Below are positions 3,464-63,946 of a stretch of DNA of 64,000 bases, one piece after another (positions within the stretch are counted from its first letter, which is position 1; each line of letters begins with the position of its first letter). Below the pieces are notes generated by a model. It did no database searches, was not told where the DNA came from, and saw nothing but the letters and a program-made list of their open reading frames with translations. The stretch is from a bacterium. Lineage in GTDB: Bacteria; Patescibacteriota; Minisyncoccia; Phycocordibacterales; UBA12088. The stretch is taken from NCBI GenBank assembly GCA_003252295.1, contig QKEV01000007.1, positions 80,139-144,138 of the forward strand, in the 5' to 3' direction. Made by a program: the position numbers and the translations under genes.

Positions 3464-4135
3464 GCGCTTCTGAAACTTTCAAGAGACGAGTACGACACAT
3501 ATGCATCTGAGTTTTCTGGTACGAGAAAGTTTTTTTGGCGTGAGCTTGAGTTTCTAAAAGAGTATGTGACACCAGGTTCTAAGATACTTGATATTGGCTG
3601 CGGTAACGGTCGCCTCCTTGATCTCTTTGAGGGTCTAGATATTGAGTACACAGGTATAGACTCTTCAAAAGAGCTTATCGCAATAGCACAAAAAGAAAGA
3701 GGATCACGAGGTGCTTTTATTCATGCTGACGCACTCTCGCTTCCCTTTGAGGATGGTACTTTTGATGTTGTGTTTTCGGTAGCTATGCTACATCATGTGC
3801 CTGATCATAAAAATAGGATGCAGTGTGTTTCTGAGGCGCAGCGTGTTTTGAAGCATGGAGGTACTTGTGTGTTTACTGTCTGGAACACCTTACAGTGGCG
3901 GTTTTTTAAGCAACATCTAGTACAAACAGGTAGAAAACTTTGTGGTCTCTCAGACTTAGATCTTGGTGACATGATCATCACCTTTGGAAAAAAGAAGAGA
4001 AAGCGCTTCGTGCATTCTTTATCAAAGAGAGCACTTCAATCACTCTTTGAGAAAAATAGTTTTTTGGATACTATGGTGAGAGAGGTAAAACGTAAAAGTG
4101 GTTTTGCAAACTTTATAGTAACTGCAAAAAAATAA
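3443..4135 (+). CDS. Class I SAM-dependent methyltransferase, Trm9-like
   Basis: Motif I ILDIGCGNGRLL and motif LHHV. GTG start 6 nt after a TAGTAT box. It is divergent from elp3. Confidence 0.7.
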   Translation: MKKETAQALLKLSRDEYDTYASEFSGTRKFFWRELEFLKEYVTPGSKILDIGCGNGRLLDLFEGLDIEYTGIDSSKELIAIAQKERGSRGAFIHADALSLPFEDGTFDVVFSVAMLHHVPDHKNRMQCVSEAQRVLKHGGTCVFTVWNTLQWRFFKQHLVQTGRKLCGLSDLDLGDMIITFGKKKRKRFVHSLSKRALQSLFEKNSFLDTMVREVKRKSGFANFIVTAKK

Positions 4136-4140
4136 ACATA

Positions 4141-4545
4141 TTGCTTATGGATACAAAAATAATTATTGCTTCAGGTCCGGTGATTGTCGAAGATGGTAAG
4201 GTTCTTCTTGACGAGCACGGTGATACTGATTACTGGAAATTTTGTGGTGGTGAGGTGCAGGACTTTACTCATGACCTCATCGAAAATGCTAAAAACAGAG
4301 CGAAAGAAGAGATTGGTGTTGATGTTGAGATACTTGATGAGACGCCGTTTATTTTTCATACAACAAAGGTAAAAGAGTATGGTAGAGTTGACTACCTTGT
4401 AGTGCATTTTTTGGCAAAGCGAATTGGAGAGGTGGTACCCGGAAGTGACATACGAGAATGGGCATGGATACCCCTTAATGAGCTTCGTGCACACAAACTT
4501 GCTCCAAGTATTATGCCAGCACTCAAACACTTCAAGTTTCAGTAA
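4141..4545 (+). CDS. NUDIX-family hydrolase (probable)
   Basis: GGEVQDF...RAKEEIGV resembles the Nudix box GX5EX7REUXEEXGU, with partial matches. 134 aa. Confidence 0.5.
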   Translation: MLMDTKIIIASGPVIVEDGKVLLDEHGDTDYWKFCGGEVQDFTHDLIENAKNRAKEEIGVDVEILDETPFIFHTTKVKEYGRVDYLVVHFLAKRIGEVVPGSDIREWAWIPLNELRAHKLAPSIMPALKHFKFQ

Positions 4546-4601: not shown

Positions 4602-5135
4602 TTACACGGTCGCCATATTTGTACTTATTTTTTTTGCCCACATGAGGGCTCTTCCCTTCACACCATATCTTCTTCCTGGTATGTGCCGTGAAGACCTTGA
4701 GAAACTACAAGGTTTAGCCACGGTACGCCTGATGATTTGTTCATTTTCAGCGTCATCAGATGGACTGAAAATCTCTAAATCATCCGAATCATCTGACATC
4801 AACCAGAAATCGTCAACAATTGGATTTCCTTCAATGTCAGCAATCCCACCTTTAACTTTGCCAATCGAAGATGGGATGCGTGTCTCTCCATCAGGACATC
4901 CTTGAGGTGTGAATCCTTCCTCCCCCCAAATGTGTGGTTTGGTGGTCGAAAGTGCTGTGTGGTTTGTGTGGATACCTTGAACGAATCCAGGCGATTCACA
5001 CCGTGACTCTTCGACTCCAAGACCACGCTGCAAACGCAGTTCAAGTGAAAACGGAACAAAATATTTTTGTCCGCCGATGTTCCTGATGTCTCGTCCGTCT
5101 TTAAATCGATCTTCCAACTCTTGAATTCTTCCCAT
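4602..5135 (-). CDS. Hypothetical protein
   Basis: 177-aa ORF with no recognisable motif. Acidic D/S-rich central segment. Confidence 0.4.
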   Translation of the reverse strand: MGRIQELEDRFKDGRDIRNIGGQKYFVPFSLELRLQRGLGVEESRCESPGFVQGIHTNHTALSTTKPHIWGEEGFTPQGCPDGETRIPSSIGKVKGGIADIEGNPIVDDFWLMSDDSDDLEIFSPSDDAENEQIIRRTVAKPCSFSRSSRHIPGRRYGVKGRALMWAKKISTNMATV

Positions 5136-8416: not shown

Positions 8417-8440
8417 GGTTGATGTAGTGAGATAAAAAAA

Positions 8441-8472
8441 CAGCACACCAGACATAACAAGGTGTGCTGTTT
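8441..8472 (+). terminator. Rho-independent terminator
   Basis: cagcacacc..ggtgtgctg hairpin followed by ttt. Confidence 0.5.
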
Positions 8473-8748
8473 AAGCAAATCAAATAATTATTAAAAGTGA
8501 AACAAGTTTCTAATTGTTGACCCAAGTTTGGTGCACCATATACTCAAGTGCCCACGTACACCAAGCTTGGGTGTGAGCCAGGGAAATTCGCTAACCTCGT
8601 TCTGTGCTTTCATGTATGTTTCCTTTAGGTAAAGTTGTCTGGTTTACTACTGTCCGTGAAGTATGATACTGCTTCTTTATAACGTGTCAAACAAATCAAT
8701 TGTTAATAATTTTTAACTTTTTAGGTATTTCAAGTAGAATATAGATAT

Positions 8749-17684: not shown

Positions 17685-17755
17685 TTACAAAGTATACATA
17701 CTACACCTTACTGTTGCCAGGTTGTTGTAGAGTACTAGAATATGTATATAAAAAA

Positions 17756-17786
17756 CAGGGAGAGCTGCTAAACTCTCCCTTTTTTG
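17756..17786. terminator. Bidirectional rho-independent terminator
   Basis: aaaaaa-cagggagag-ctgctaaa-ctctccct-tttttt. Confidence 0.65.
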
Positions 17787-17789
17787 ATT

Positions 17790-18240
17790 CCCAGAACCTA
17801 GGATGTGTTGTTTCCAACAAACACCGTTAAGCGGTCAACTGGGTCCATGTTCCCGTGATGTAGCACCAACCAAACTGGAAAAACTATTCGTTATTCTTAC
17901 CCAAAAAATTCTTCCGTCAGTTGCACCACTCGAAGCTTCGGTACTAGGCTACGCCTTCGCCTTCCTACACTGCCGCACCTCAAAGGTAGGTTGCCAGATT
18001 TAAAGACCTTAGCTGTCGATCTGTATCACCCGCGACTTAGTTTACAAAGTAAACACACTACTACCATAACTCCTGGTTGTCACGTTATAGTGACCTCTCG
18101 TTCCGCAGAACTTAAAACATGGAAAGACCTACTAAACAAGTTATAAGAAATGTTAAATTATTACAAGTTTACAAACAGCAGTAAGTATTATGATTTCATT
18201 TATTTATCAGTTCCCTTCTAATAAAGCTACAAAGAGTTAA
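17790..18240. ncRNA. Candidate structured non-coding RNA of unknown identity and unresolved strand
   Basis: About 450 nt with no credible ORF in a compact genome. It is bracketed by two strong intrinsic terminators (17756-17786, 18241-18271). A degenerate copy of the island leader motif lies at 17805-17825 on the + strand. Confidence 0.3.
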
Positions 18241-18271
18241 GCGCCATACCGTGAAAAGGTGTGGCGCTTTT
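18241..18271 (+). terminator. Rho-independent terminator (+ orientation)
   Basis: gcgccatacc-gtgaaaa-ggtgtggcgc followed by ttttat. Confidence 0.6.
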
Positions 18272-18728
18272 ATAAAAAATACCGTGGAGAAATTCTTCCT
18301 TTAGGGTTTCCGGTACAAAAAATGCACCATTTCACATCTCTAAGAGATGTCGTATCGGAGTGTCGTCCTTCGCGATACAGCTCAAAGTCTGTATCCAACT
18401 TAACTCCGCGATGCTACCGGTTGCTTCCACCCTCCTTTTGGGGAAGATGTACTCTGGATACCACATAGGTAAAAGTTGATCTTGAGACGGTTTTCTCTCG
18501 CGACCGCGTTTAGTCCGTGTTTGTGGTCCAACAACCCCTGGTAAACCAGGTTTGCCCTGTTCCCATTTCAGATTTCCGTGGTCATCTGTCCCGAGAATCG
18601 ATTTTTTCTTTCTTGAAAGAACTCGCTCCATACTTAAAATAGCATATCCAATCATCAATGCAAATCATTTTTAAGTACTGGCTGTCCCCCCTTCGTTGAA
18701 GCTACAGCGGATAAAATCTGGGACAATG

Positions 18729-19764: not shown

Positions 19765-19808
19765 AAATATAGTATACACAAAAACAACCTAGCACTGGAA
19801 CTGCAAAA

Positions 19809-19855
19809 AAGAATCAGGTGAGATGTGCCCATTGGGTAGTAATCACCTGATTCTT
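19809..19855. repeat. Split inverted repeat aagaatcaggtga...tcacctgattctt (13-bp arms, 21-nt spacer), followed by T-run. Bidirectional terminator-like.
   Basis: It shares arms with the perfect palindrome at 21190-21219. Confidence 0.6.
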
Positions 19856-19956
19856 TTTGGTGGCCGTCCTCCTCTACTACAACTAGAGCAGATAAGATTT
19901 AGAACAATACACACTACGTACCGATCAATGCTCAGGTACTAGGGTTAGGACTTTTG

Positions 19957-21149: not shown

Positions 21150-21189
21150 AAACACAAGTATACACAAAACATCCTAAGACTCGAACTGA

Positions 21190-21219
21190 AAGAATCAGGT
21201 GATTAATCACCTGATTCTT
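21190..21219. repeat. Perfect 30-nt palindrome aagaatcaggtgatt|aatcacctgattctt between island gene A and tRNA-Gln
   Basis: Exact inverted repeat. Half-sites also occur at 16780-16792 and 58484-58494. Confidence 0.7.
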
Positions 21220-21224
21220 TATTG

Positions 21225-21295
21225 CTGCCGGACTAGGACTCGAACCTAGATTAACGGGACCAAAACCCGTCGTCCTACCATTAGACGATCCGGCA
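21225..21295 (-). tRNA. tRNA-Gln (anticodon UUG)
   Basis: Minus-strand UGCCGGAUCGUCUAAUGGUAGGACGACGGGUUUUGGUCCCGUUAAUCUAGGUUCGAGUCCUAGUCCGGCAG. 7-bp acceptor stem, D-loop AAUGGUAG, anticodon loop UUUUGGU, T-loop GGUUCGAGUCC. CCA is not encoded. Confidence 0.8.
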
Positions 21296-35735: not shown

Positions 35736-38700
35736 TTAGTCGTTAGTAATATCCTTATTCTCCTCAAGTCGAACATCAAGTGCTAGTGCACGTAGATGAT
35801 GTGTGAGTACGTTAAATGCTGCTGGCGTGTTCGTATGGGTAATGAGACCATCGCGCACAATAGCATCAAATGCTGCTGATCGACCTTGTATATCGTCTGA
35901 TTTTACGGTGAGCACCTCACGAAGCGTGTATGCTGCTCCGTATCCAAGAAGTGCCCACACTTCCATCTCTCCAAATCGTTGTCCTCCGTTTTGTGCCTTA
36001 CCTCCAAGTGGCTGTTGTGTAATGAGTGAGTATGGACCAATAGAACGCATATGAATCTTGTCCTCAACCATATGATGCAGCTTCATGATGTACATGTAGC
36101 CAATAGCTACCTTCTGGTTGAAGTCTTCACCGGTGCGACCATCACGTAGCTGTACCTTTCCGTCTTCTGGGTAACCTGATGCTACGAGTTCTGACTTGAT
36201 TTCTTCTTCAGTTGCTCCTGCAAATGGAGGACACACTGCCTGGTAGCCAAGTGTGTGTGCTGCAAGGCCAAGATGTAGCTCAAGGATCTGTCCTAGGTTC
36301 ATACGACTCGGCACACCGAGTGGAGTCAAGATAACATCAATTGGTCGTCCATCCTCAAGGTACGGCATGTCCTCCTCAGGAAGAATACGTGAAATAACAC
36401 CCTTGTTTCCATGTCGTCCAGCAAGCTTGTCACCTACTGAAACACTTCGCACCTGTGCCATGGTCACCTGTACTTTCTTTAAAATACCTGATTCGAGTTG
36501 ATCACCTGCCTCACGTGAGAATATCTGTACACCAACAACTCGTCCTTGTTTTCCACCTTGAAGTCGCAAGCTGGTATCTTTCACATCCTTCGCCTTTTCA
36601 CCGAAGATACTTCGAAGCAGTCGCTCTTCTGGAGTCAACTGACTTTCACCCTTAGGAGTTACCTTACCAACAAGAATGTCACCTGTGCGAACCTCTGCAC
36701 CAATACGAACAATACCTTCCTCATCAAGATTTTTGAGTTTTGCTTCACCAACGTTCGGGATGTCATGTGTCGTTACCTCTGCACCAAGCTTGGTGTCACG
36801 AACAACACACTCAAACACCTCCATGTGAATAGAACTGAACTTAGCATTCTTTACGAGACGCTCTGAAAGAATGATTGCATCCTCGTAGTTTGCTCCTGCC
36901 CATGGCATGAATGCAACGAGTGCATTCTGTCCAAGTGCGAGCTGTCCCTCTACTGTTGAACTGGTATCAGCTAGGAGTTCACCCTTCTTTACCTTCTGAC
37001 CTACCTTCACAACCGGTCGTTGGAAGAAGCAGGACATGTCGTTCGTTCGTGAGAAATCAACAAGTGGGTACTCTATACTCTTTCCTTTCTTGTTCTTGAA
37101 CACAATATGCTTTGCATCAACTGCAGCAATCTCTCCTGCTTCTGGTGCGAGTATGAGACGTCCTGTGTCCTGTGCTGCTCGAGCCTCAATTCCTGTTCCC
37201 ACGAGTGGAATTTCAGGAACGAGACATGGAGTAGCTTGTTTCTGCATGTTTGATCCCATGAGTGCACGGTTAGCATCATCGTTCTCTAGGAACGGGATCA
37301 TGGTTGTTGCAACAGAGAATGGCTGCATGGTTGATACATCCATGTACTCTACGTCGTTACGTGATACCACTGTTGGTTCACCACTGTGACGTACCTCAAT
37401 CTGACTCTCAACGATCGTTTTTTTGTCATTGAGCTTTGTTGCAGCATGGGCAATGTATGCTTTCTCTTCTTCGAGTGCATTGAGGTACACAACCTCCTCA
37501 GTTACCCTACCTTTTTCAACCTTTAAGTATGGAGTCTGAATGAATCCAAAACGGTCAATAACACTAAAGTTTGCAAGGTGGAGAATGAGTCCGATGTTTG
37601 GACCTTCTGGTGTGTGAATAGGACATACACGTCCGTAGTGACTAGGATGTACATCACGTACTTCAAACCCTGCTCGTTCACGTGTTAGACCACCTGGGCC
37701 GAGTGCTGAAAGGGTTCGTAAGTGCTCAAGCTCTGTAAGCATGTTCTGCTGCTGCATGAACTGTGAGAGCTGGTTTGTGTTAAAGAATTCCTTTATTGCA
37801 GCCTGAAGTGGTCGTGGGTTGATGATGGTTACAGGTGAAGATGTCTCCGGCTCAATAGTACTCATACGATCCTGAATGTTTCGCTTCATGCGGCTCACAC
37901 CAACACGAATCTTCTGCATCATCATCTCACCAACAAAACGAACACGGCGGAAACCAAGGTGATCAATATCATCAGCGATTGCATTTGGATCTGCATTCAT
38001 CTCCATAACCTTCGTAAGGATAGTGATAAGGTCATCAAGAGTAATGGTACGTACCGCAATATCTTTTGGTGTCATACCCTTTCCAAAACGCTGATTGAAT
38101 CGATGGCGTCCTACCTCAGAAAGGTCATAACGTTCCTCACCGAGCACTGAAAGCACAAAGTCACGTGCGGTCTCAGGTGTTGCAATATCACCATCACGCA
38201 TACGTCGATACATTTCTATAAACGCATCCTCAGTTGTTTTTGCTGGATCTTTCTCTAGTGTTGTCTGTATCGTATCTTTTCCACCATCAACTGACTTAAA
38301 GAGATCGAGCATATCCTTATCAAAGGCTGCACCAAGGATACGTAGGAAGCTTGTTATTGGAAGCTTTCGTTTTCGGTCGATACGTACGTAAATTGCTCCA
38401 TCCGCCTCACTCTCGATTTCGATCCACACACCTCGTCCTGGAATAATCTTTGCACCAAAATAGGTTTTTCCTTTAAGAAGTTGGCTGGTGAAAAATACAC
38501 CTGAACTTCGTGCAAGCTGTGGTACAACAACGCGCTCGACACCATTAATAATAAAGGTGCCGTGGTCAGTCATCATTGGGAAATCAGCAAGAAAGATTTC
38601 CTGCTCGTTCTCTGTTCCAAGTGTCTTATTCTTAAGTTTTATCCTTGCCTTGATAGGAGCTTCGTATGTACGATTGTTCTTCTTTGCGTAGTATTCATCG

Positions 38701-38915
38701 TTTACTGGCTCACCGATCTCATATCCCTCAAAAGTGAGGTCAAATTTCTTCTCACCGTAATCGCGGATTGGTGAGAACTCTTTAAAGACTTCGCTGATAC
38801 CATCCTCAACGAGCCATTTGAAACTGGTGAGCTGGTGCTCAACCAAGTTTGGCAGATCCTGGTCTGCTGGACGATACCTACTGAAGGTCTTTTGTGTAGT
38901 GGTACTGGTTGACAT
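35736..38915 (-). CDS. rpoB: DNA-directed RNA polymerase subunit beta
   Basis: 1059 aa. Conserved beta-subunit blocks are present (GRHGNKGV, LGGKAQNGGQRFGEME). It lies directly upstream of rpoC. Confidence 0.95.
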   Translation of the reverse strand: MSTSTTTQKTFSRYRPADQDLPNLVEHQLTSFKWLVEDGISEVFKEFSPIRDYGEKKFDLTFEGYEIGEPVNDEYYAKKNNRTYEAPIKARIKLKNKTLGTENEQEIFLADFPMMTDHGTFIINGVERVVVPQLARSSGVFFTSQLLKGKTYFGAKIIPGRGVWIEIESEADGAIYVRIDRKRKLPITSFLRILGAAFDKDMLDLFKSVDGGKDTIQTTLEKDPAKTTEDAFIEMYRRMRDGDIATPETARDFVLSVLGEERYDLSEVGRHRFNQRFGKGMTPKDIAVRTITLDDLITILTKVMEMNADPNAIADDIDHLGFRRVRFVGEMMMQKIRVGVSRMKRNIQDRMSTIEPETSSPVTIINPRPLQAAIKEFFNTNQLSQFMQQQNMLTELEHLRTLSALGPGGLTRERAGFEVRDVHPSHYGRVCPIHTPEGPNIGLILHLANFSVIDRFGFIQTPYLKVEKGRVTEEVVYLNALEEEKAYIAHAATKLNDKKTIVESQIEVRHSGEPTVVSRNDVEYMDVSTMQPFSVATTMIPFLENDDANRALMGSNMQKQATPCLVPEIPLVGTGIEARAAQDTGRLILAPEAGEIAAVDAKHIVFKNKKGKSIEYPLVDFSRTNDMSCFFQRPVVKVGQKVKKGELLADTSSTVEGQLALGQNALVAFMPWAGANYEDAIILSERLVKNAKFSSIHMEVFECVVRDTKLGAEVTTHDIPNVGEAKLKNLDEEGIVRIGAEVRTGDILVGKVTPKGESQLTPEERLLRSIFGEKAKDVKDTSLRLQGGKQGRVVGVQIFSREAGDQLESGILKKVQVTMAQVRSVSVGDKLAGRHGNKGVISRILPEEDMPYLEDGRPIDVILTPLGVPSRMNLGQILELHLGLAAHTLGYQAVCPPFAGATEEEIKSELVASGYPEDGKVQLRDGRTGEDFNQKVAIGYMYIMKLHHMVEDKIHMRSIGPYSLITQQPLGGKAQNGGQRFGEMEVWALLGYGAAYTLREVLTVKSDDIQGRSAAFDAIVRDGLITHTNTPAAFNVLTHHLRALALDVRLEENKDITND

Positions 38916-53278: not shown

Positions 53279-54037
53279 CTAAAGTGCATATTTTGATACT
53301 AATGTTGCGATCACTACCCATCGCTCCTCTTTCGCGCCAAAATTATTGCACGTTACGAGCGTTAGTGATGGCTCACTAGCATCAAAAGATACCTCAGCGT
53401 CACCAGCATCTGAAAGGAACACTTCATTTACTGAGTACACGTACCTGTGTGTAGCAGAGTACACATCGATCGTGTCACCCACACTGAGCTTGTTGAGTTC
53501 ATTGAAGGCCTTGTACGCCTTGTTGTAAACAACAGGTAAATGACTTGAGTGTCCAAATATGAGTACATTTGCATTTTGACCAAGCATTCCTGATCCAGGA
53601 TAGTACACAGCACCACTCAAGAGTGCCGTATCAAGTGAAGCAATGTCTGCTTCTTCTGGAGCAAGTACAACAGTATCAATACCAACATCGGTAGCTACTA
53701 TACGCACCGGCAGCTCGGTTTCAGAAGAATAGACAACGTTTCCCGCAACAGTTGTTGCAGTACTATCAGACGCACCGTCAGTAGCAAGTACCACAGCACC
53801 CACAGTGGATACTGTTTCTACTACTTCATTATTTACGACGAGAGTATCTTCTACAGGAGAAGATACCGTAATGGTTGCTTCTGGGTCGCCTTCAGCGCGA
53901 ATTGTCAGCTCGGGAACAAAGTCGATAGCAAATAGAAAAGTGGCAAATAACACAAAAATGCCAAAGGTCTGAAGGTAAAACACCTTGTAACCAGTAGCAA
54001 CTCCATGTGTATTCTTTTGTGTATTTTGCGCTTCCAT
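53279..54037 (-). CDS. Sortase-family transpeptidase
   Basis: N-terminal TM. Catalytic His (LIFGHSSHL), Cys (LTLVTCNNFG) and Arg (EERWVV). Confidence 0.75.
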   Translation of the reverse strand: MEAQNTQKNTHGVATGYKVFYLQTFGIFVLFATFLFAIDFVPELTIRAEGDPEATITVSSPVEDTLVVNNEVVETVSTVGAVVLATDGASDSTATTVAGNVVYSSETELPVRIVATDVGIDTVVLAPEEADIASLDTALLSGAVYYPGSGMLGQNANVLIFGHSSHLPVVYNKAYKAFNELNKLSVGDTIDVYSATHRYVYSVNEVFLSDAGDAEVSFDASEPSLTLVTCNNFGAKEERWVVIATLVSKYAL

Positions 54038-56198: not shown

Positions 56199-58358
<2,160 letters not shown>

Positions 58359-58451
58359 TTAAGCTGTATTTATGGTCAAAATACTAAGTTTATTGCTTGT
58401 TTATACTATATAAAAAATTGACACATTTCAAAAGTATTATATTATTTAACA

Positions 58452-58676
58452 AGGCATCAAAAAAAATTTTTGAAACTCAAGGGGGGAGCTGACCAGTGTT
58501 TTTGTCACAGCGTAGAATCAGGTGAAGATCCCATAGGCGACTCAATACGACGCATCAAGGGCACTTCTGGATCATGTGGTGATAGTGCCACATTTACCTA
58601 CATGAAGGAAAATGGTTGGTTTCAAGATTAACCCACATCAAGACCTGTCTGCTATCATAGCGGCAGGTCTTTTTTA
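58452..58676 (+). ncRNA. Candidate ~220-nt small RNA with its own promoter and intrinsic terminator
   Basis: TTGACA (58418-58423), 16-nt spacer, TATTAT (58440-58445). No ORF. Terminator hairpin agacctg...caggtct + tttttt at 58641-58676. No + strand gene downstream. Confidence 0.4.
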
Positions 58677-58706
58677 ATGCACACCTATATGAAGACACGA
58701 CCACCC

Positions 58707-60629
58707 TTACCGAACCTCCCAACCTTTCTTTCTGTTGAGCGTATTGGTGACATCCTCCATGATAGCACCAATTTCAACATCGGTAAGTGTCTTTTCTTTT
58801 GATTGGAACACTAGGTGCCATGCATACGAGACCTTCCCATCTTTTTCATACTCATCGAACTGATCATATCGCACCAAGAGCCCTGTTCCCTTTCTGATAA
58901 CCTCAGAGAGCACTTCTTCCGGCTTCACCTCACTTGGTACCCATACCGCTATATCACGCAGTACGTATGGGTATGGTGACCACATTTCAAAACGTGCTTC
59001 AGTATCCCACTGATGTCCAACCCCATACAGTTCTGGCACCTCAAGCGAACTGAGCACACCCTCAAGAGAGATCTCAAGTACACCATCCTCCACCTGCAAT
59101 TTTGGCTGCACTTGAAGAGACTTCATAAGCTCAGTTACGTCCTCTTGCATTGCAGTATCAAGCTTGCTCTGCTTTCCTATAAGCGCCTTTACACCAACAG
59201 CAAGATGCAGCTCTTCACCTTTACTCGTAAATACCGTTCCAACTTCAAAGAGTTTTACTGCATCAAGTGCAAGGAGCGGTGCATTCTGCGTATTGAGTTC
59301 AAGCGCCTGTGTCATACCTGTACGCAATGAAGCACGCATGAAGGATTTGTCAGAAGTAAAAGGGTTAGCTAACTCCACCTCACCTCTATCAAGCATGGTA
59401 TAGGTGAGCACTTCAGAGTAGCCATGCTCTGCAAAGAACTGCTGTATCAGAGTACTTAGGTACAAGTTTTTATTGACCGGTGGTTTTGCTTCAGGTACTT
59501 CGGGCAGTTTTGAAACAATGTTTGCGTAACCATACATGCGCCCGATCTCTTCTATGACAGCTTCTTTGGTGGTGAGATCAGTTCTCTCCCATGGACTCGT
59601 GACTGCAAACTCTTCACCATCAAGTGAGAACTCCCATTCAAAACGAACCAGTATTCCCTCAATATCCTCCTGTGATAGCTCTAAACCAAGCAAGGTGTTT
59701 ATCTCAGTAATGGTCACATCAATCGGGGTGTTCTCAACAACATGTTCATACCCATCTACAACCCCGACAACCTTCCCATTTGCAATATCCTCAATGAGTG
59801 TAAGTACCTCACGCATTGCAAAAGCAGGTAGCTGCACTGGCACCTCATTCTGATAACGAAGGGATGCGTCAGTGTGGAGTTTGATTCTGTTTGATGTTTT
59901 ACGGACTGTTACAGGATCAAAGGTGGCAACCTCTACAACAATGTCTGTCGTCTTTACAGTTACCTCTGCTTGCTTACCACCCTTTATTCCCGCAAGTGCT
60001 AAGGGTATATCGGAAACACCGTCAACAATAAGCTGATCTTTTTCGGTGAGCACGTAGCTATCATTGGTAAGCGTTGTTATCTCCTCTTCATCTTTTGCTA
60101 AACGAACAGCAATTCCCTTTTTACCATCTGCATCTGCTGTGAGTAGATCCATATCAAAAGCATGAATTGGTTGCCCCAGAGAGAACATGACAAAGTTGGT
60201 AGCATCAACTACATTGTTTATTGATTTTTGACCAATGGTTTCTAGGAACGTTTTGAGCCACTCAGGAGATGCACCAATTTCGACACCACGAACAACTCCC
60301 GCCATGTACCGTGAACAGAGATGCTCATCCTCAATCCGGACCTGCACGAGATCTGTACTGTCCCAAACAGGTAAGTTCTCACGTAACGGGTCACGCTTCA
60401 TTGGTACACCCATAATGGTTGCAAGCTCACGAGCAATACCTCGATGTGAGAGACAGTCAGATGACCTGTTTGGAAGCACGTCAACATCAATAACCCAATC
60501 GTCAGCAACCTGTTCAAGTCCTTCTACTTCAAACGCATGACCATTAAAAAGGTCGACGAGTTCTTCTGCTTTCGGCAACTCTTTCTCAAAGTATGTCTGT
60601 AGCCATTTTCTTGAAACCAACATATACAC
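58707..60629 (-). CDS. pheT: Phenylalanyl-tRNA synthetase beta subunit (short form)
   Basis: B3/B4, B5 and catalytic-like domains in 640 aa. Immediately downstream of pheS with a 1-nt overlap. Confidence 0.8.
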   Translation of the reverse strand: MYMLVSRKWLQTYFEKELPKAEELVDLFNGHAFEVEGLEQVADDWVIDVDVLPNRSSDCLSHRGIARELATIMGVPMKRDPLRENLPVWDSTDLVQVRIEDEHLCSRYMAGVVRGVEIGASPEWLKTFLETIGQKSINNVVDATNFVMFSLGQPIHAFDMDLLTADADGKKGIAVRLAKDEEEITTLTNDSYVLTEKDQLIVDGVSDIPLALAGIKGGKQAEVTVKTTDIVVEVATFDPVTVRKTSNRIKLHTDASLRYQNEVPVQLPAFAMREVLTLIEDIANGKVVGVVDGYEHVVENTPIDVTITEINTLLGLELSQEDIEGILVRFEWEFSLDGEEFAVTSPWERTDLTTKEAVIEEIGRMYGYANIVSKLPEVPEAKPPVNKNLYLSTLIQQFFAEHGYSEVLTYTMLDRGEVELANPFTSDKSFMRASLRTGMTQALELNTQNAPLLALDAVKLFEVGTVFTSKGEELHLAVGVKALIGKQSKLDTAMQEDVTELMKSLQVQPKLQVEDGVLEISLEGVLSSLEVPELYGVGHQWDTEARFEMWSPYPYVLRDIAVWVPSEVKPEEVLSEVIRKGTGLLVRYDQFDEYEKDGKVSYAWHLVFQSKEKTLTDVEIGAIMEDVTNTLNRKKGWEVR

Positions 60630-61336
60630 TAAACATTAAATTGATGAGTAAAACGTAAATCGCCCGTATGGAAGTACCGAACATCATCAACCTCAGCACC
60701 GATCATAATGAGTCGTTCAAGACCACCACCAAGAGCAAACCCTGAGTACTCTTCGGGATCAACACCACCAGCACGAAGCACGTTTGGATGTATCATACCA
60801 GCACCTAAAACTTCAACCCATTCTTTCGTACCATCTTTTTTGCGGAGGAGCATATCTACCTCAACCCCAGGCTCAACGAAAGGAAAGTAGCCAGGTCGAA
60901 AACGTATCGTAATATCACGCCCATAAAACTCTGAAAAGAAGTGCTCCAGTACACCCTTAAGGTGAGCAAGGGATACTTCCTTATCAATGTACATAGCTTC
61001 AACCTGGTAGAACTGTGCCTCATGTGTCGCATCAGTCGTCTCATTTCTAAACACACGTCCAGCGGTCACCATACGTATCGGCGGAGTATGTTCCTCCATG
61101 TGACGCACTTGCACATTGCTCGTGTGTGTACGCAGTACCGTCTCTTCACGACCCTTTATCCAAAAGGTGTCCTGCATATCACGAGCAGGATGATCACGTG
61201 GCACATTGAGTGCATCAAAGTTGTAGTACTCACTCTCAACAAGTGGTCCATCAACAAACGTAAACCCCAGGTTAGTAAAAATATCTTGTATTCTTGAAAT
61301 TGCTGCTGATATAGGATGTATGTGACCTTTTTTCAT
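60629..61336 (-). CDS. pheS: Phenylalanyl-tRNA synthetase alpha subunit (short form)
   Basis: FDALNVPRDHPARDMQDTFWI, class II motifs 2 and 3. 235 aa. Confidence 0.85.
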   Translation of the reverse strand: MKKGHIHPISAAISRIQDIFTNLGFTFVDGPLVESEYYNFDALNVPRDHPARDMQDTFWIKGREETVLRTHTSNVQVRHMEEHTPPIRMVTAGRVFRNETTDATHEAQFYQVEAMYIDKEVSLAHLKGVLEHFFSEFYGRDITIRFRPGYFPFVEPGVEVDMLLRKKDGTKEWVEVLGAGMIHPNVLRAGGVDPEEYSGFALGGGLERLIMIGAEVDDVRYFHTGDLRFTHQFNV

Positions 61337-61384: not shown

Positions 61385-62371
61385 CTACAACTCAGTAACT
61401 CTAAAATGGCTACCGTCAAAAATAGCAAGGGTGTTGATATCAAGTAAACGAAAATCAAGATTCGGTTCTTCTATTATGGTCTGAATATTTCGCTGCGATC
61501 TGTTATCGAGTTCGACAACATACAGTCCACTCCTGGTGAGAACTATCACAACATCATTTCGATTTGGATAAAAATTGTAGCGGAGTATGTCATCTTCCCA
61601 CTGAATAGCAAGTTGATCCTGACACCCTCCTTCAGAGCAGAAGTAGTATGGGACCACGTCGTTTTCCCGTGCCCACACAGCATAGAGATCTCCATGTTCA
61701 AGCCAGGTCACAATACCGTCATGCTCACGAACCATCTCTTTTTCCGCAAGCTTGCTTGAGCTTGCCAGCGTTACAAGCCAGTCAGGGTAACGAATCTCAG
61801 TAACAATGGTCGTACTTGGGTAACGTATACCACGTATATACTCATATGTTGAAGTAGCAACCTCTACCTCAAACTGATCATGATCCTCTTCAAAAAACTC
61901 CACCTTATCTAGGTACTCCGGATTTGTAACCTCAGTTGTCGTACTGATACCTGTTTCAGTATCAAGCATGGTGAGTGTAGAGGTGGCATTAATCATTACC
62001 CATTCAAAAACCTTTGGGAGCATAAATATTTTCGCCTCAGTCACCAGTTTTGGTTCAACACGAAGCACCTTGACCCAGCTCTGATACTCCGGGCGTTCAA
62101 CACGTACCGCATAGTACCTATTTGGAAGCAACCCTTCGATAAACGTATTCCTGAGAAGTGCACCGTTGTTTTCAACAAACTCATCATCAAGATACACTGA
62201 TGTGTATGGTATATCAGAATGAAGATATATACCTCCCGTCTGAATAACACCCAGGGCATCATCAATTCTGTACCCTCTTGAGTACCCTATAAGGACTGGA
62301 GTACAAAGTAAAAATGTAAACAGTAAAAACCATAGTACCCTCCTGCGTATTTTTTTTGATAACGGCTTCAT
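61385..62371 (-). CDS. Hypothetical secreted / membrane-anchored protein
   Basis: N-terminal TM VLWFLLFTFLLCTPVLIGY. No motif recognised. Confidence 0.45.
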   Translation of the reverse strand: MKPLSKKIRRRVLWFLLFTFLLCTPVLIGYSRGYRIDDALGVIQTGGIYLHSDIPYTSVYLDDEFVENNGALLRNTFIEGLLPNRYYAVRVERPEYQSWVKVLRVEPKLVTEAKIFMLPKVFEWVMINATSTLTMLDTETGISTTTEVTNPEYLDKVEFFEEDHDQFEVEVATSTYEYIRGIRYPSTTIVTEIRYPDWLVTLASSSKLAEKEMVREHDGIVTWLEHGDLYAVWARENDVVPYYFCSEGGCQDQLAIQWEDDILRYNFYPNRNDVVIVLTRSGLYVVELDNRSQRNIQTIIEEPNLDFRLLDINTLAIFDGSHFRVTEL

Positions 62372-62374
62372 GGT

Positions 62375-63946
62375 TTATGATTCTTTTCTTTTCTCTTTTG
62401 GTGTCACCCAAAATTCACCCATATATTTACCAAAAGCTAACTTTGTTTGGGCATGCAAACCCGGTACAGCACCAAGGATCACTATGGTAAATGGAACGAG
62501 TAACCATTGTACGCTTGCCCAAAAGTACTTCATGCCGCGTTTTGGATAATCTTTAGGCAGTTTTGGCATAAATGAAAACGCGACACACGCAGCGAGGACA
62601 AGACCAAGCATGGCAACAAGCATGAGATTTCGTGTGATAAATGGAAGACTGTATGATATGACCGTATCCCGAAACGCATCACCTCCGAGCACAATAGGTA
62701 ACCATCCAAGGAGAAAAATAAGAATAGGATGTGTTGCGAGTGACCACCAACCTTCAAGCTGTACCATGGTGTGGTAGATACGCTTTCTAAGTGGTATTGA
62801 TTTGTTTTTCACAAAGCCAAAGAGCATGTATGGAACATTTTCAACACCCCACAACCATCGAAATTGCTGCTTGTATATATTCTTCAACGTTTTCAAGAAT
62901 GTTGGTGCGGTGGTTGCATCCATTGAAACTGGGTAGCTAATGGGTACCGTCGTATAATCACCATCATTTGCTAAAAAGAGGTTCCAAAAGATACGTGAGT
63001 CATCAGACACAACGTTCTTTTGCCAAAAACCGATCTCATTCAAAGCCTTAAAAGAAATTGCATGTGAAGAAAATGTTGTAAGTTTTTCTGAACGTTCCTG
63101 TTGTATCATCTGCCAAAACGTACTTGAAAAAGCAGCAACACGAGAAATAGCCGGTGCATCCCAGATGTTGTTGTTATATAGTGGAACTGGTTGGAAAGAA
63201 GTTTTGTGTGGATACTCAGCAGTTAAAAAATACCAAGTTAAACAGAGGAAGTACTGTGGATACACCACCGTATCAATATCAAACGCAGAAACTATAACAT
63301 CCTCATACGGAATATTATAGGCATCAACCACTTCCTTTTTTGCCATCTCCGCAGCGTACGTAATATTTGGACCCTTACCTTTTATCTCACCAGGTAAGCC
63401 CTCAGGATGCGCAGTAACAACAATATGCTTAAACGTACCAGCATACTTTTTCTTCATTTTGTATGCTATTGCAACTGCCTCCTCACCAGCTCGTTCTTCA
63501 GCAGCTAGACCGAGTATGATCTTTGTTTTGTCGTACTCTGCATTTGCAACAGACTGTATCGCCGCCTCAACTATTTGTTCTGGCTCCTTGTAATACGGAA
63601 GGATAACGTAATGATAGAGTTGCTCGTACTTAAAAGGTCTCATTTTCTCCTTCCAGTCCACCTTGAGGTTATGCTTCAGACGCTTCCAGTTGTACCGTTG
63701 ATGCATGGATAAGTAAAATGTTTTCAATACCCAGTATAAATCGAAGGTAATAATAAGATACGCAGCATAGGTTGGACCATACACAGAAAGAGCCACAATA
63801 GCAATAATTGTGGACCACGAAATGAATGCCGGTATCGCTTCTAAAAAACGATAGAGCGTCTTATCTTTCCCCTCCAAATCCCTCGCATGGGCTACCTTTA
63901 AATATGGTGTTTTTGAAAAGTGTGTTACTTGTCTTTTTTCCTTCAT
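62375..63946 (-). CDS. Membrane-embedded family-2 glycosyltransferase (processive, cellulose/chitin-synthase-like)
   Basis: N- and C-terminal TM helices. DxD-like SAFDIDT and the QQFRWLWG (QxxRW) motif. Confidence 0.6.
   Translation of the reverse strand: MKEKRQVTHFSKTPYLKVAHARDLEGKDKTLYRFLEAIPAFISWSTIIAIVALSVYGPTYAAYLIITFDLYWVLKTFYLSMHQRYNWKRLKHNLKVDWKEKMRPFKYEQLYHYVILPYYKEPEQIVEAAIQSVANAEYDKTKIILGLAAEERAGEEAVAIAYKMKKKYAGTFKHIVVTAHPEGLPGEIKGKGPNITYAAEMAKKEVVDAYNIPYEDVIVSAFDIDTVVYPQYFLCLTWYFLTAEYPHKTSFQPVPLYNNNIWDAPAISRVAAFSSTFWQMIQQERSEKLTTFSSHAISFKALNEIGFWQKNVVSDDSRIFWNLFLANDGDYTTVPISYPVSMDATTAPTFLKTLKNIYKQQFRWLWGVENVPYMLFGFVKNKSIPLRKRIYHTMVQLEGWWSLATHPILIFLLGWLPIVLGGDAFRDTVISYSLPFITRNLMLVAMLGLVLAACVAFSFMPKLPKDYPKRGMKYFWASVQWLLVPFTIVILGAVPGLHAQTKLAFGKYMGEFWVTPKEKRKES

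Follow-up and report, generated by a model that had tools for sequence, protein, structure and literature searches.

A Putative Orphan Transcription Unit in the pheT-gyrB Spacer of an Uncultured Patescibacteria Genome

Introduction

One of the questions raised by the spacer between pheT and gyrB in the genome of an uncultured member of the Patescibacteria is why a near-consensus promoter and a strong terminator should lie there, about 220 nucleotides (nt) apart, on a strand that carries no gene behind them. The DNA in question is a stretch of 64 kb (contig QKEV01000007.1), which as a whole is called the window here, and a sequence-only reading of it had proposed the promoter-to-terminator unit as a small RNA (sRNA) candidate. 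Patescibacteria have tiny genomes and their non-coding regulation is almost unexplored. To our knowledge there are essentially no characterised sRNAs in this group, and a full-text literature search for Patescibacteria sRNAs found none. By comparing the unit with the corresponding loci of its relatives and with known protein and RNA families, we arrive at the tentative suggestion, held with a little less than even confidence, that it is an orphan, lineage-specific and non-coding transcription unit of no known family.

Promoter, Terminator and Predicted Transcript

The unit is made of the following features, given with their positions in the window.

58418-58445, + strand: sigma-70-type promoter, TTGACA-16-TATTAT, matching the consensus at 11 of 12 positions
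58418-58423 and 58440-58445, + strand: the promoter hexamers TTGACA and TATTAT, with 16 nt between them
58452-58674, + strand: predicted transcript of ~223 nt, with its start placed 7 nt after the -10 box and its end within the U tract
58456-58472, either strand: A/T palindrome TCAAAAA-AAT-TTTTTGA, at +5 to +21 of the predicted transcript
58479-58637, + strand: GC-rich body of the unit, 46.5% GC
58640-58674, + strand: intrinsic terminator, a 14-pair hairpin with one bulge, then U6

The spacer that holds the unit measures 435 nt from the pheT stop codon to the gyrB start codon. Every gene around the unit is encoded on the - strand, the unit itself lies on the + strand opposite pheT and gyrB, and no + strand gene is found 3' of it.

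Promoter sites of this quality are rare but enriched over shuffled sequence. In the whole window there are five sites that match at 11 of the 12 positions, against 1.4 +/- 1.0 in dinucleotide shuffles, and the remaining four precede the gene at 4602-5135, the gene at 35736-38915 (whose 1059-amino acid (aa) product is of the size of rpoB), the gene at 53279-54037 and a 40-codon open reading frame (ORF) that has a Shine-Dalgarno sequence and its own terminator. Since these four sites stand in sensible places, the consensus is evidently one that the host uses, and RNA polymerase probably starts from the site at 58418 as well. Two repeats accompany it. The A/T palindrome could fold into a weak hairpin at the 5' end (-2.6 kcal/mol) or else be an inverted repeat of operator type, and the repeat pair TTTCAAAA (58426) and TTTTGAAA (58468) flanks the -10 box and the start site.

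At the other end, the terminator hairpin AAGACCUG-U-CUGCUA/UAGCGGCAGGUCUU occupies 58640-58671 and is followed by T6 at 58669-58674. Its + strand fold reaches -19.2 kcal/mol (z = -6.2), whereas the same DNA read on the - strand folds with -15.7 kcal/mol and has no U tract. As the U tract is found on the + strand only and the - strand fold is weaker, the terminator is oriented for the + strand. The near-consensus promoter, the strong intrinsic terminator, the span of about 220 nt between them and the absence of a downstream + strand gene, all claimed by the sequence-only reading, are therefore borne out, and the promoter-to-terminator arrangement is better than chance. It has what is generally looked for in an intergenic sRNA gene, namely its own promoter and its own intrinsic terminator on one strand with sRNA-like spacing, and judging from these signals a short + strand transcript is likely to be produced.

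In the 3' part of this region a 12-mer, ACCYAYATSAAG, occurs three times (58596-58607, 58631-58642 and 58683-58694, with spacings of 35 and 52 nt); the third copy is found past the terminator and close to the stop codon of pheT, immediately before it.

Comparison with Related Loci

Where does the unit come from? Relatives were collected through their pheT and gyrB homologues, and the DNA that was compared is that of the loci around these genes. The host is an uncultured Patescibacteria genome of Parcubacteria/Paceibacteria-like character. Its best species-level pheT matches among GTDB representatives had no more than 39-46% identity and were all Patescibacteria, and the homologues carrying names were 'Parcubacteria group bacterium GW2011_GWD2_42_14' and 'Candidatus Paceibacterota'. 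pheT searches of genome and metagenome contig collections gave distant relatives only (identity of at most 47%).

The gene order GT2, 328-aa gene, pheS, pheT, gyrB is conserved in the clade. The pheT-gyrB spacer measures 78 nt in locus L013, 107 nt in L044, 67 nt in L046, 66 nt in L050 and 34 nt in L051, compared with 435 nt here, and spacers of 34-107 nt are too short for a unit of ~220 nt. In the closest relative (L012/L042, sample ERZ794998), whose pheT and gyrB are 80% and 85% identical, the two genes are unlinked, and the spacers beside them (100 and 111 nt) have no similarity to the unit. Within the spacer, alignment with relatives is limited to the 45 nt preceding gyrB. Because the relatives' spacers are short and only the gyrB leader aligns, some 370 nt can be taken as lineage-specific extra DNA, with these limits:

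58330-58700 (approximate), either strand: lineage-specific extra DNA of ~370 nt, from the spacer lengths in relatives
58274-58320, - strand: gyrB promoter and leader, conserved, which marks the left edge of the insertion

The promoter-to-terminator unit is, as far as such alignments tell, the content of this lineage-specific insertion. A second sample (locus L011) has an identical copy of it, and an identical contig of 5.7 kb is present in SRR7216773.

The site seems to attract other DNA as well. An AbiEii/AbiEi toxin-antitoxin pair, encoded opposite to pheT and gyrB, is inserted between these two genes in L047-L049, and this makes the pheT-gyrB spacer an insertion hot spot. The pair is located at 7968-9269 in L047 and is also present in L048 and L049, in genomes like Parcubacteria GW2011_GWD2_42_14, and immediately upstream of abiEi this type of cassette has a long palindrome, TATTGTGACTGGAAGGG...CCCTTTCCAGTCACAATA.

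The insert was also compared with mobile DNA. A blastn search of the unit in 'distant' mode against phage and plasmid collections gave no match. Among viral contigs, three scans with exact or degenerate patterns found nothing, and one 16-mer gave eight matches that were judged to be chance, five of them copies of one unrelated GC-rich sequence. No second copy of the unit exists in the 64-kb window, and the sole inverted repeat candidate, an 11-nt pair of A/T runs (58454-58464 and 58670-58680), overlaps the U tract of the terminator. A miniature inverted-repeat transposable element or insertion sequence remnant was rejected on the grounds that there are no convincing terminal inverted repeats, no flanking target-site duplication and no paralogue in the window.

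Taking promoter, terminator and insertion together, a possible course of events can be drawn. RNA polymerase with the housekeeping sigma factor would start at ~58452, on the strand opposite both neighbours, and transcribe ~223 nt up to the canonical terminator of hairpin and U6, which leaves 30 nt to the pheT stop codon. The product would be a short non-coding RNA of no described family, not present in the nearest sequenced relatives, and this orphan RNA, be it a young sRNA or a relic transcript, would have come with the inserted DNA or arisen from it. If it is functional, it would most likely act by pairing with other RNAs or else locally; in the latter case convergent transcription and the hairpin might keep gyrB expression apart from pheS-pheT read-through.

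Composition and Fold of the Body

The body of the unit has 46.5% GC, as compared with a coding average of 42.9% and with 21-27% in the flanking spacer. Such a jump is expected of an RNA gene or of foreign DNA in an AT-rich spacer, and the value fits an RNA gene, foreign DNA and a former coding sequence equally well.

With respect to known families, Rfam 15 at gathering thresholds gave tRNA-Gln only in the whole window. With permissive filters and E<=10, searches of 501 nt and 166 nt of the region gave noise only (searches that still listed matches of 10-12 bits): mir-4041 on the terminator, a partial rdlD match of 14-15 bits, 'Sodium' with 10-12 bits and a tobacco mosaic virus pseudoknot. ARAGORN found neither a tRNA nor a transfer-messenger RNA (tmRNA) in the region. 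That the unit could not be assigned to a known RNA family, as had been stated before any database was consulted, is thus confirmed by the covariance models.

A closing helix is predicted in which GGGGGGAGCUGACCAGUG (58481-58498) pairs with UGGUUGGUUUC (58613-58623) and, after an unpaired stretch, with CCC (58632-58634). The full 225 nt fold with z = -1.76, mostly because of the terminator.

Several results weigh against an orphan RNA gene and should be considered together. The body folds no better than shuffled sequence, with a z of -0.24 (+ strand) or -0.18 (- strand), and values so near zero give no thermodynamic evidence for a structured RNA. No relative examined has the unit at the syntenic site, and the closest one lacks it beside either gene. 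Searches of 49 loci by blastn and nhmmer returned only the identical L011 copy and the match to the gyrB leader; with L050 and L051, whose spacers are of 66 and 34 nt, the comparison covered 51 related or candidate loci and gave no homologue. A duplex scan against the 5' regions of the window's genes found no significant target, the best value being -55.2, compared with -49.2 +/- 3.3 for shuffled queries (minimum -57.0). Furthermore, the terminator hairpin stands at the expected place of a pheT terminator. Of the sRNA candidate that the sequence-only reading had put forward, the promoter-terminator architecture, the lack of a downstream gene and the lack of a known family hold, whereas conservation and a structure signal in the body are not supported; conservation in relatives, by which that reading had wished to be judged, was not found at the pheT/gyrB loci, and the nearest relative is already distant.

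Alternative Origins of the Insert

The codon content of the insert bears on two of the alternatives. It includes a 69-codon stop-free frame and the following ORF.

58470-58631, + strand: 53-codon ORF with a TTG start and no Shine-Dalgarno sequence, probably not a gene

A codon-usage score places the 53-codon frame at 0.15, lower than real gene segments (0.35 +/- 0.15) but higher than spurious ORFs (-0.17 +/- 0.14). The neighbouring frame +1, which has 3 stops, scores as high (0.17). This intermediate value may reflect strand composition or a frameshifted remnant.

One explanation, somewhat unlikely to our mind, is that an accessory cassette once inserted here, for example of a toxin-antitoxin or defence type, and left the unit as its relic, in which the promoter and terminator persist while the coding part was lost or has decayed; the transcript would then be a by-product. 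The AbiEii/AbiEi pair, which sits in the same spacer with the same polarity (L047-L049), fits such a history, and so do the coding-like GC of the body, the 69-codon frame, the scores of frames 0 and +1, as a frameshifted remnant could give, and the operator-like inverted repeats around the start site. Against it, every frame compared with AbiE proteins gave noise (best tblastn score 20 bits), there is no Pfam match and no real match among 1.84 billion representative proteins, the DNA match to the L047 cassette is limited to the gyrB leader (blastn), and a body of 190 nt is very short for a remnant that retains both ends. The orphan unit and the cassette relic are overlapping explanations, and the promoter and terminator of a relic may still be firing.

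Another option, which we regard as quite unlikely, is that no dedicated unit exists and a promoter-like sequence happens to stand before a pheT terminator or a bidirectional one. The hairpin begins 30 nt past the pheT stop codon and its - strand fold is still considerable, and AT-rich spacers yield promoter-like hexamers: sites matching at 9 or more of 12 positions number 5 in the spacer region, with 4.0 expected by chance. However, the U tract is found on one strand, sites with 11 of 12 matches are rare and all others in the window are functionally placed, and the relatives have no such hairpin, their pheT being directly followed by the gyrB leader hairpin.

It is improbable that the unit is a gene for a small protein. 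Three frames could serve: the 53-aa TTG ORF, a 21-aa ORF, MVGFKINPHQDLSAIIAAGLF (58612-58677), and a 9-aa ORF that starts with GTG at 58496 behind GGGGGGAG. The genome has a comparable unit of promoter, small ORF and terminator (8434-8690, - strand) with a good Shine-Dalgarno sequence and ATG; GGGGGGAG is Shine-Dalgarno-like, with GGAG 7 nt before the GTG, and no more than 2.8% of stop-free shuffles reach the codon score of the 53-codon frame, which stands above 97% of them. The details of each frame point the other way. Pfam gave no match to any of the six stop-free translations of the region, and phmmer with the 53-aa ORF against the representative proteins gave four matches, all of them large repeat proteins of eukaryotic type with summed weak stretches. 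The ORF gave no match to itself, which means that no gene caller recorded it. In the 21-aa ORF an AGGA stands merely 2-3 nt from the ATG and the frame crosses the terminator hairpin, and the 9-aa ORF is very small and would be hidden within the closing helix of the predicted fold. The earlier statement that the unit contains no ORF holds only roughly, since the 53-codon TTG frame exists; this frame has neither a Shine-Dalgarno sequence nor homologues, and a credible ORF is probably lacking.

The Shared 11-mer and the Palindromes

Within the body, two overlapping words link the unit to a distant part of the window.

58515-58525, + strand: 11-mer GAATCAGGTGA, with 5 copies in the window against 0.02 expected
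58514-58525, + strand: 12-mer AGAATCAGGTGA, the same sequence as one palindrome arm and ~50% unpaired in the predicted ensemble

The four further copies of GAATCAGGTGA are the arms of two palindromes that form terminator-like hairpins (19806-19858 and 21189-21220), and for this reason the copy count is not independent evidence. It had been pointed out that the 11-mer is shared with the island palindrome. The sharing is real, yet it does not go beyond chance: between the 225-nt region and the remainder of the window, chance alone gives 16 positions with a common 11-mer and 5 with a common 12-mer. GAATCAGGTGA is absent from the loci of all relatives.

If the likeness had a meaning, the unit could be a functional, recently acquired trans-acting sRNA whose half-exposed 12-nt stretch AGAAUCAGGUGA would pair with the terminator hairpins of the palindromes (19806-19858 and 21189-21220), on either side of the small island beside tRNA-Gln, and modulate termination or processing, a suggestion that we consider highly doubtful.

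The palindromes have features of their own. Their hairpins (19770-19858 and 21155-21220) share the arms AGAATCAGGTGA/TCACCTGATTCT, with loops of 21 and 4 nt, and each adjoins a similar stretch of ~45 nt with TGTGTATACT 7-9 nt before an ATG. Palindrome and stretch together have the look of a module of terminator and promoter that was duplicated and perhaps serves leaderless mRNAs. Between them the two modules bracket a gene for a 312-aa protein beside tRNA-Gln (21224-21295, - strand); neither this protein nor the 188-aa protein has a significant Pfam match.

The gyrB Promoter and Leader

The conserved part of the spacer belongs to gyrB. Its leader here consists of an extended -10 box, TGCTATACT (at about 58306-58314, - strand), a 5-bp hairpin, ACGUC-AAAG-GGCGU, and a U-rich tract that runs up to the ATG at 58271. 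In the clade the leader reads TGnTAnAAT, a hairpin ACGYC-N4-GGCGY in which U-G alternates with C-G, and a U-rich tract that leads directly to the ATG, with no Shine-Dalgarno sequence. The motif was found in L013 (5950-5996), L042 (1545-1586) and L043 (4098-4137), and immediately before gyrB in L044, L046, L047 and L050. It resembles an attenuator or terminator within the gyrB 5' leader and may double as the terminator of pheT. In L043 (gyrB 83% identical; 3827-4279) the promoter and hairpin lie ~140 nt upstream of the annotated gyrB start codon, owing either to another insertion between leader and gene or to a mis-called start codon.

One weaker site is directed toward gyrB:

58403-58431, - strand: promoter-like site TTGAAA-17-TAGTAT, 9 of 12 matches and at chance level taken alone, aimed at gyrB

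This site is back-to-back with the + strand promoter, and from the latter to the gyrB promoter downstream on the - strand the distance is about 130-180 bp. In E. coli, supercoiling is known to affect gyrase promoters, and it could be thought that transcription itself is the function, the divergent promoter altering local supercoiling (the twin-domain model) and so tuning the gyrB promoter, with the RNA being irrelevant. We consider this very improbable: apart from the back-to-back promoters the idea is purely inferential, and the relatives regulate gyrB without the unit, with spacers of 34-107 nt.

Known RNA Families

The remaining question is whether the unit could be a known RNA in disguise, for which the 5' part of its body had given a reason.

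58481-58496, + strand: GGGGGGAGCTGACCAG

The sequence-only reading had seen in this part a likeness to the 5' end of RNase P RNA. The 5' GGAGCUGACCAG and its partner UGGUUGGUUUC do seem similar to the P1/P2 strands of E. coli M1 RNA, which can be taken as a lead. The RNase P RNAs of the candidate phyla radiation (CPR) are divergent and often fall under model thresholds, and they are still detectable with the type A model (Lui et al., PMC8172020). In view of this divergence the likeness merited a fair test. The RNase P models (RF00010/RF00011) gave no match at gathering thresholds or at E<=10 with the 501 nt and the 166 nt, and with the latter none scored even about 10 bits. The universally conserved CR-I/P4 strand GAGGAAAGUCC is absent within 2 mismatches in 58452-58676, and the nearest by eye, GGUGAAGAUCC, matches at 7 of 11 positions. 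The likeness is thus confined to ~12 nt. The body of 155-190 nt falls well below the length of every bacterial RNase P RNA known to us, and with no model match, no CR-I/P4 motif, this length and no counterpart beside the same genes in relatives, RNase P RNA was rejected.

The other families fare no better. Signal recognition particle (SRP) RNA, tmRNA and tRNA were rejected for want of any Rfam or ARAGORN match. 6S RNA is unlikely considering the body z of -0.24, the branched and asymmetric fold (the predicted loop has 3 nt on one side and 27 nt on the other) and the lack of an Rfam match. The type I antitoxin RdlD was rejected as a chance-level match, being below the gathering score and with no suitable hydrophobic toxin ORF opposite the unit. 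That one of these housekeeping RNAs (RNase P, 6S, SRP or tmRNA) is present in a drastically reduced or divergent form and escaped Rfam, as the divergence of CPR RNase P RNAs might allow, can practically be dismissed, because all four gave no match at E<=10, the fold is neither rod-like nor unusually stable, and such an RNA would be expected to be conserved in relatives, whereas the unit is absent from the loci compared.

Neighboring Genes and Other Orphan Stretches

The genes next to the unit are as follows.

56199-58271, - strand: gyrB, with its ATG at 58271
58707-60623, - strand: pheT
60629-61336, - strand: pheS
61385-62371, - strand: 328-aa gene
62375-63946, - strand: GT2 glycosyltransferase

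Elsewhere in the window a second orphan unit is found at 8434-8690 on the - strand. It has a promoter TTGACA-16-TATCAT (8690 to 8663; 11 of 12 matches), a Shine-Dalgarno sequence AAAGGAAA 7 nt before the ATG, a 40-aa ORF MKAQNEVSEFPWLTPKLGVRGHLSIWCTKLGSTIRNLFHF (8613 to 8491) and a terminator of hairpin and U7 at 8469 to 8434. This arrangement suggests a gene for a small protein that has escaped annotation; it has no Pfam match. Another stretch, 17685-18331, extends over 647 nt with no convincing ORF and is the most GC-rich non-coding stretch of the window (up to 49% GC), with a bidirectional terminator inside it at 17757-17780. Rfam at E<=10 gave noise only on this stretch, which could be an unclassified RNA or a pseudogene.

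Significance

At present the unit is mainly a caution that a textbook pair of promoter and terminator is not evidence of a conserved RNA. Should it prove to be both transcribed and functional, Patescibacteria would have in it one of few examples of a regulatory RNA that stands alone, and it would show how new sRNA genes can arise from DNA inserted in a hot spot between essential genes. The trans-acting reading, if true, would place it among the first regulatory sRNAs described for ultra-small, host-dependent bacteria. A regulatory sRNA in Patescibacteria is an attractive angle, although conservation and structure give it no support, and nothing here is surprising for a specialist. The comparative part yields two points: the pheT-gyrB spacer is an insertion hot spot of the clade, and gyrB is preceded by a conserved promoter and hairpin leader.

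Comparison with Known Systems

The unit can be set beside five known systems. With the AbiEii/AbiEi type IV cassette (L047-L049) it shares the site, between pheT and the gyrB promoter, and the polarity; the cassette is of ~1.6 kb, whereas the insert here has 370 nt, contains no gene and shows no sequence similarity to it. The RdlD antisense RNA of the Ldr type I toxin-antitoxin system (RF01813) resembles the unit over ~20 nt, where GGUUGGUUUCAAGAUUAACCC matches the 5' end of the RdlD model, but the score is 14-15 bits compared with a gathering score of 50 (E 1 to 5.5), and the host belongs to another phylum.

6S RNA is of the same size class (~180-220 nt), with its own promoter and paired 5' and 3' ends. 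The unit differs from it in a branched, asymmetric fold that has no two-sided central bubble, in a stability like that of shuffled sequence and in the missing Rfam match. In type A RNase P RNA (RF00010) it is the P1/P2 closing helix that the GGAGCUGACCAG/UGGUUGGUUUC pairing resembles, whereas the unit has under half the normal length, no specificity domain and no P4/CR-I, and it is not conserved.

The closest comparison is with stand-alone sigma-70 sRNA genes and the species-specific 'orphan' sRNAs. Although the unit differs from the stand-alone intergenic sRNAs in having no conservation, no structure signal in its body and no identified seed or target, it shares with these genes the promoter, the Rho-independent terminator, the length of ~220 nt, the apparent lack of a credible ORF and the position between two housekeeping genes on the strand opposite both.

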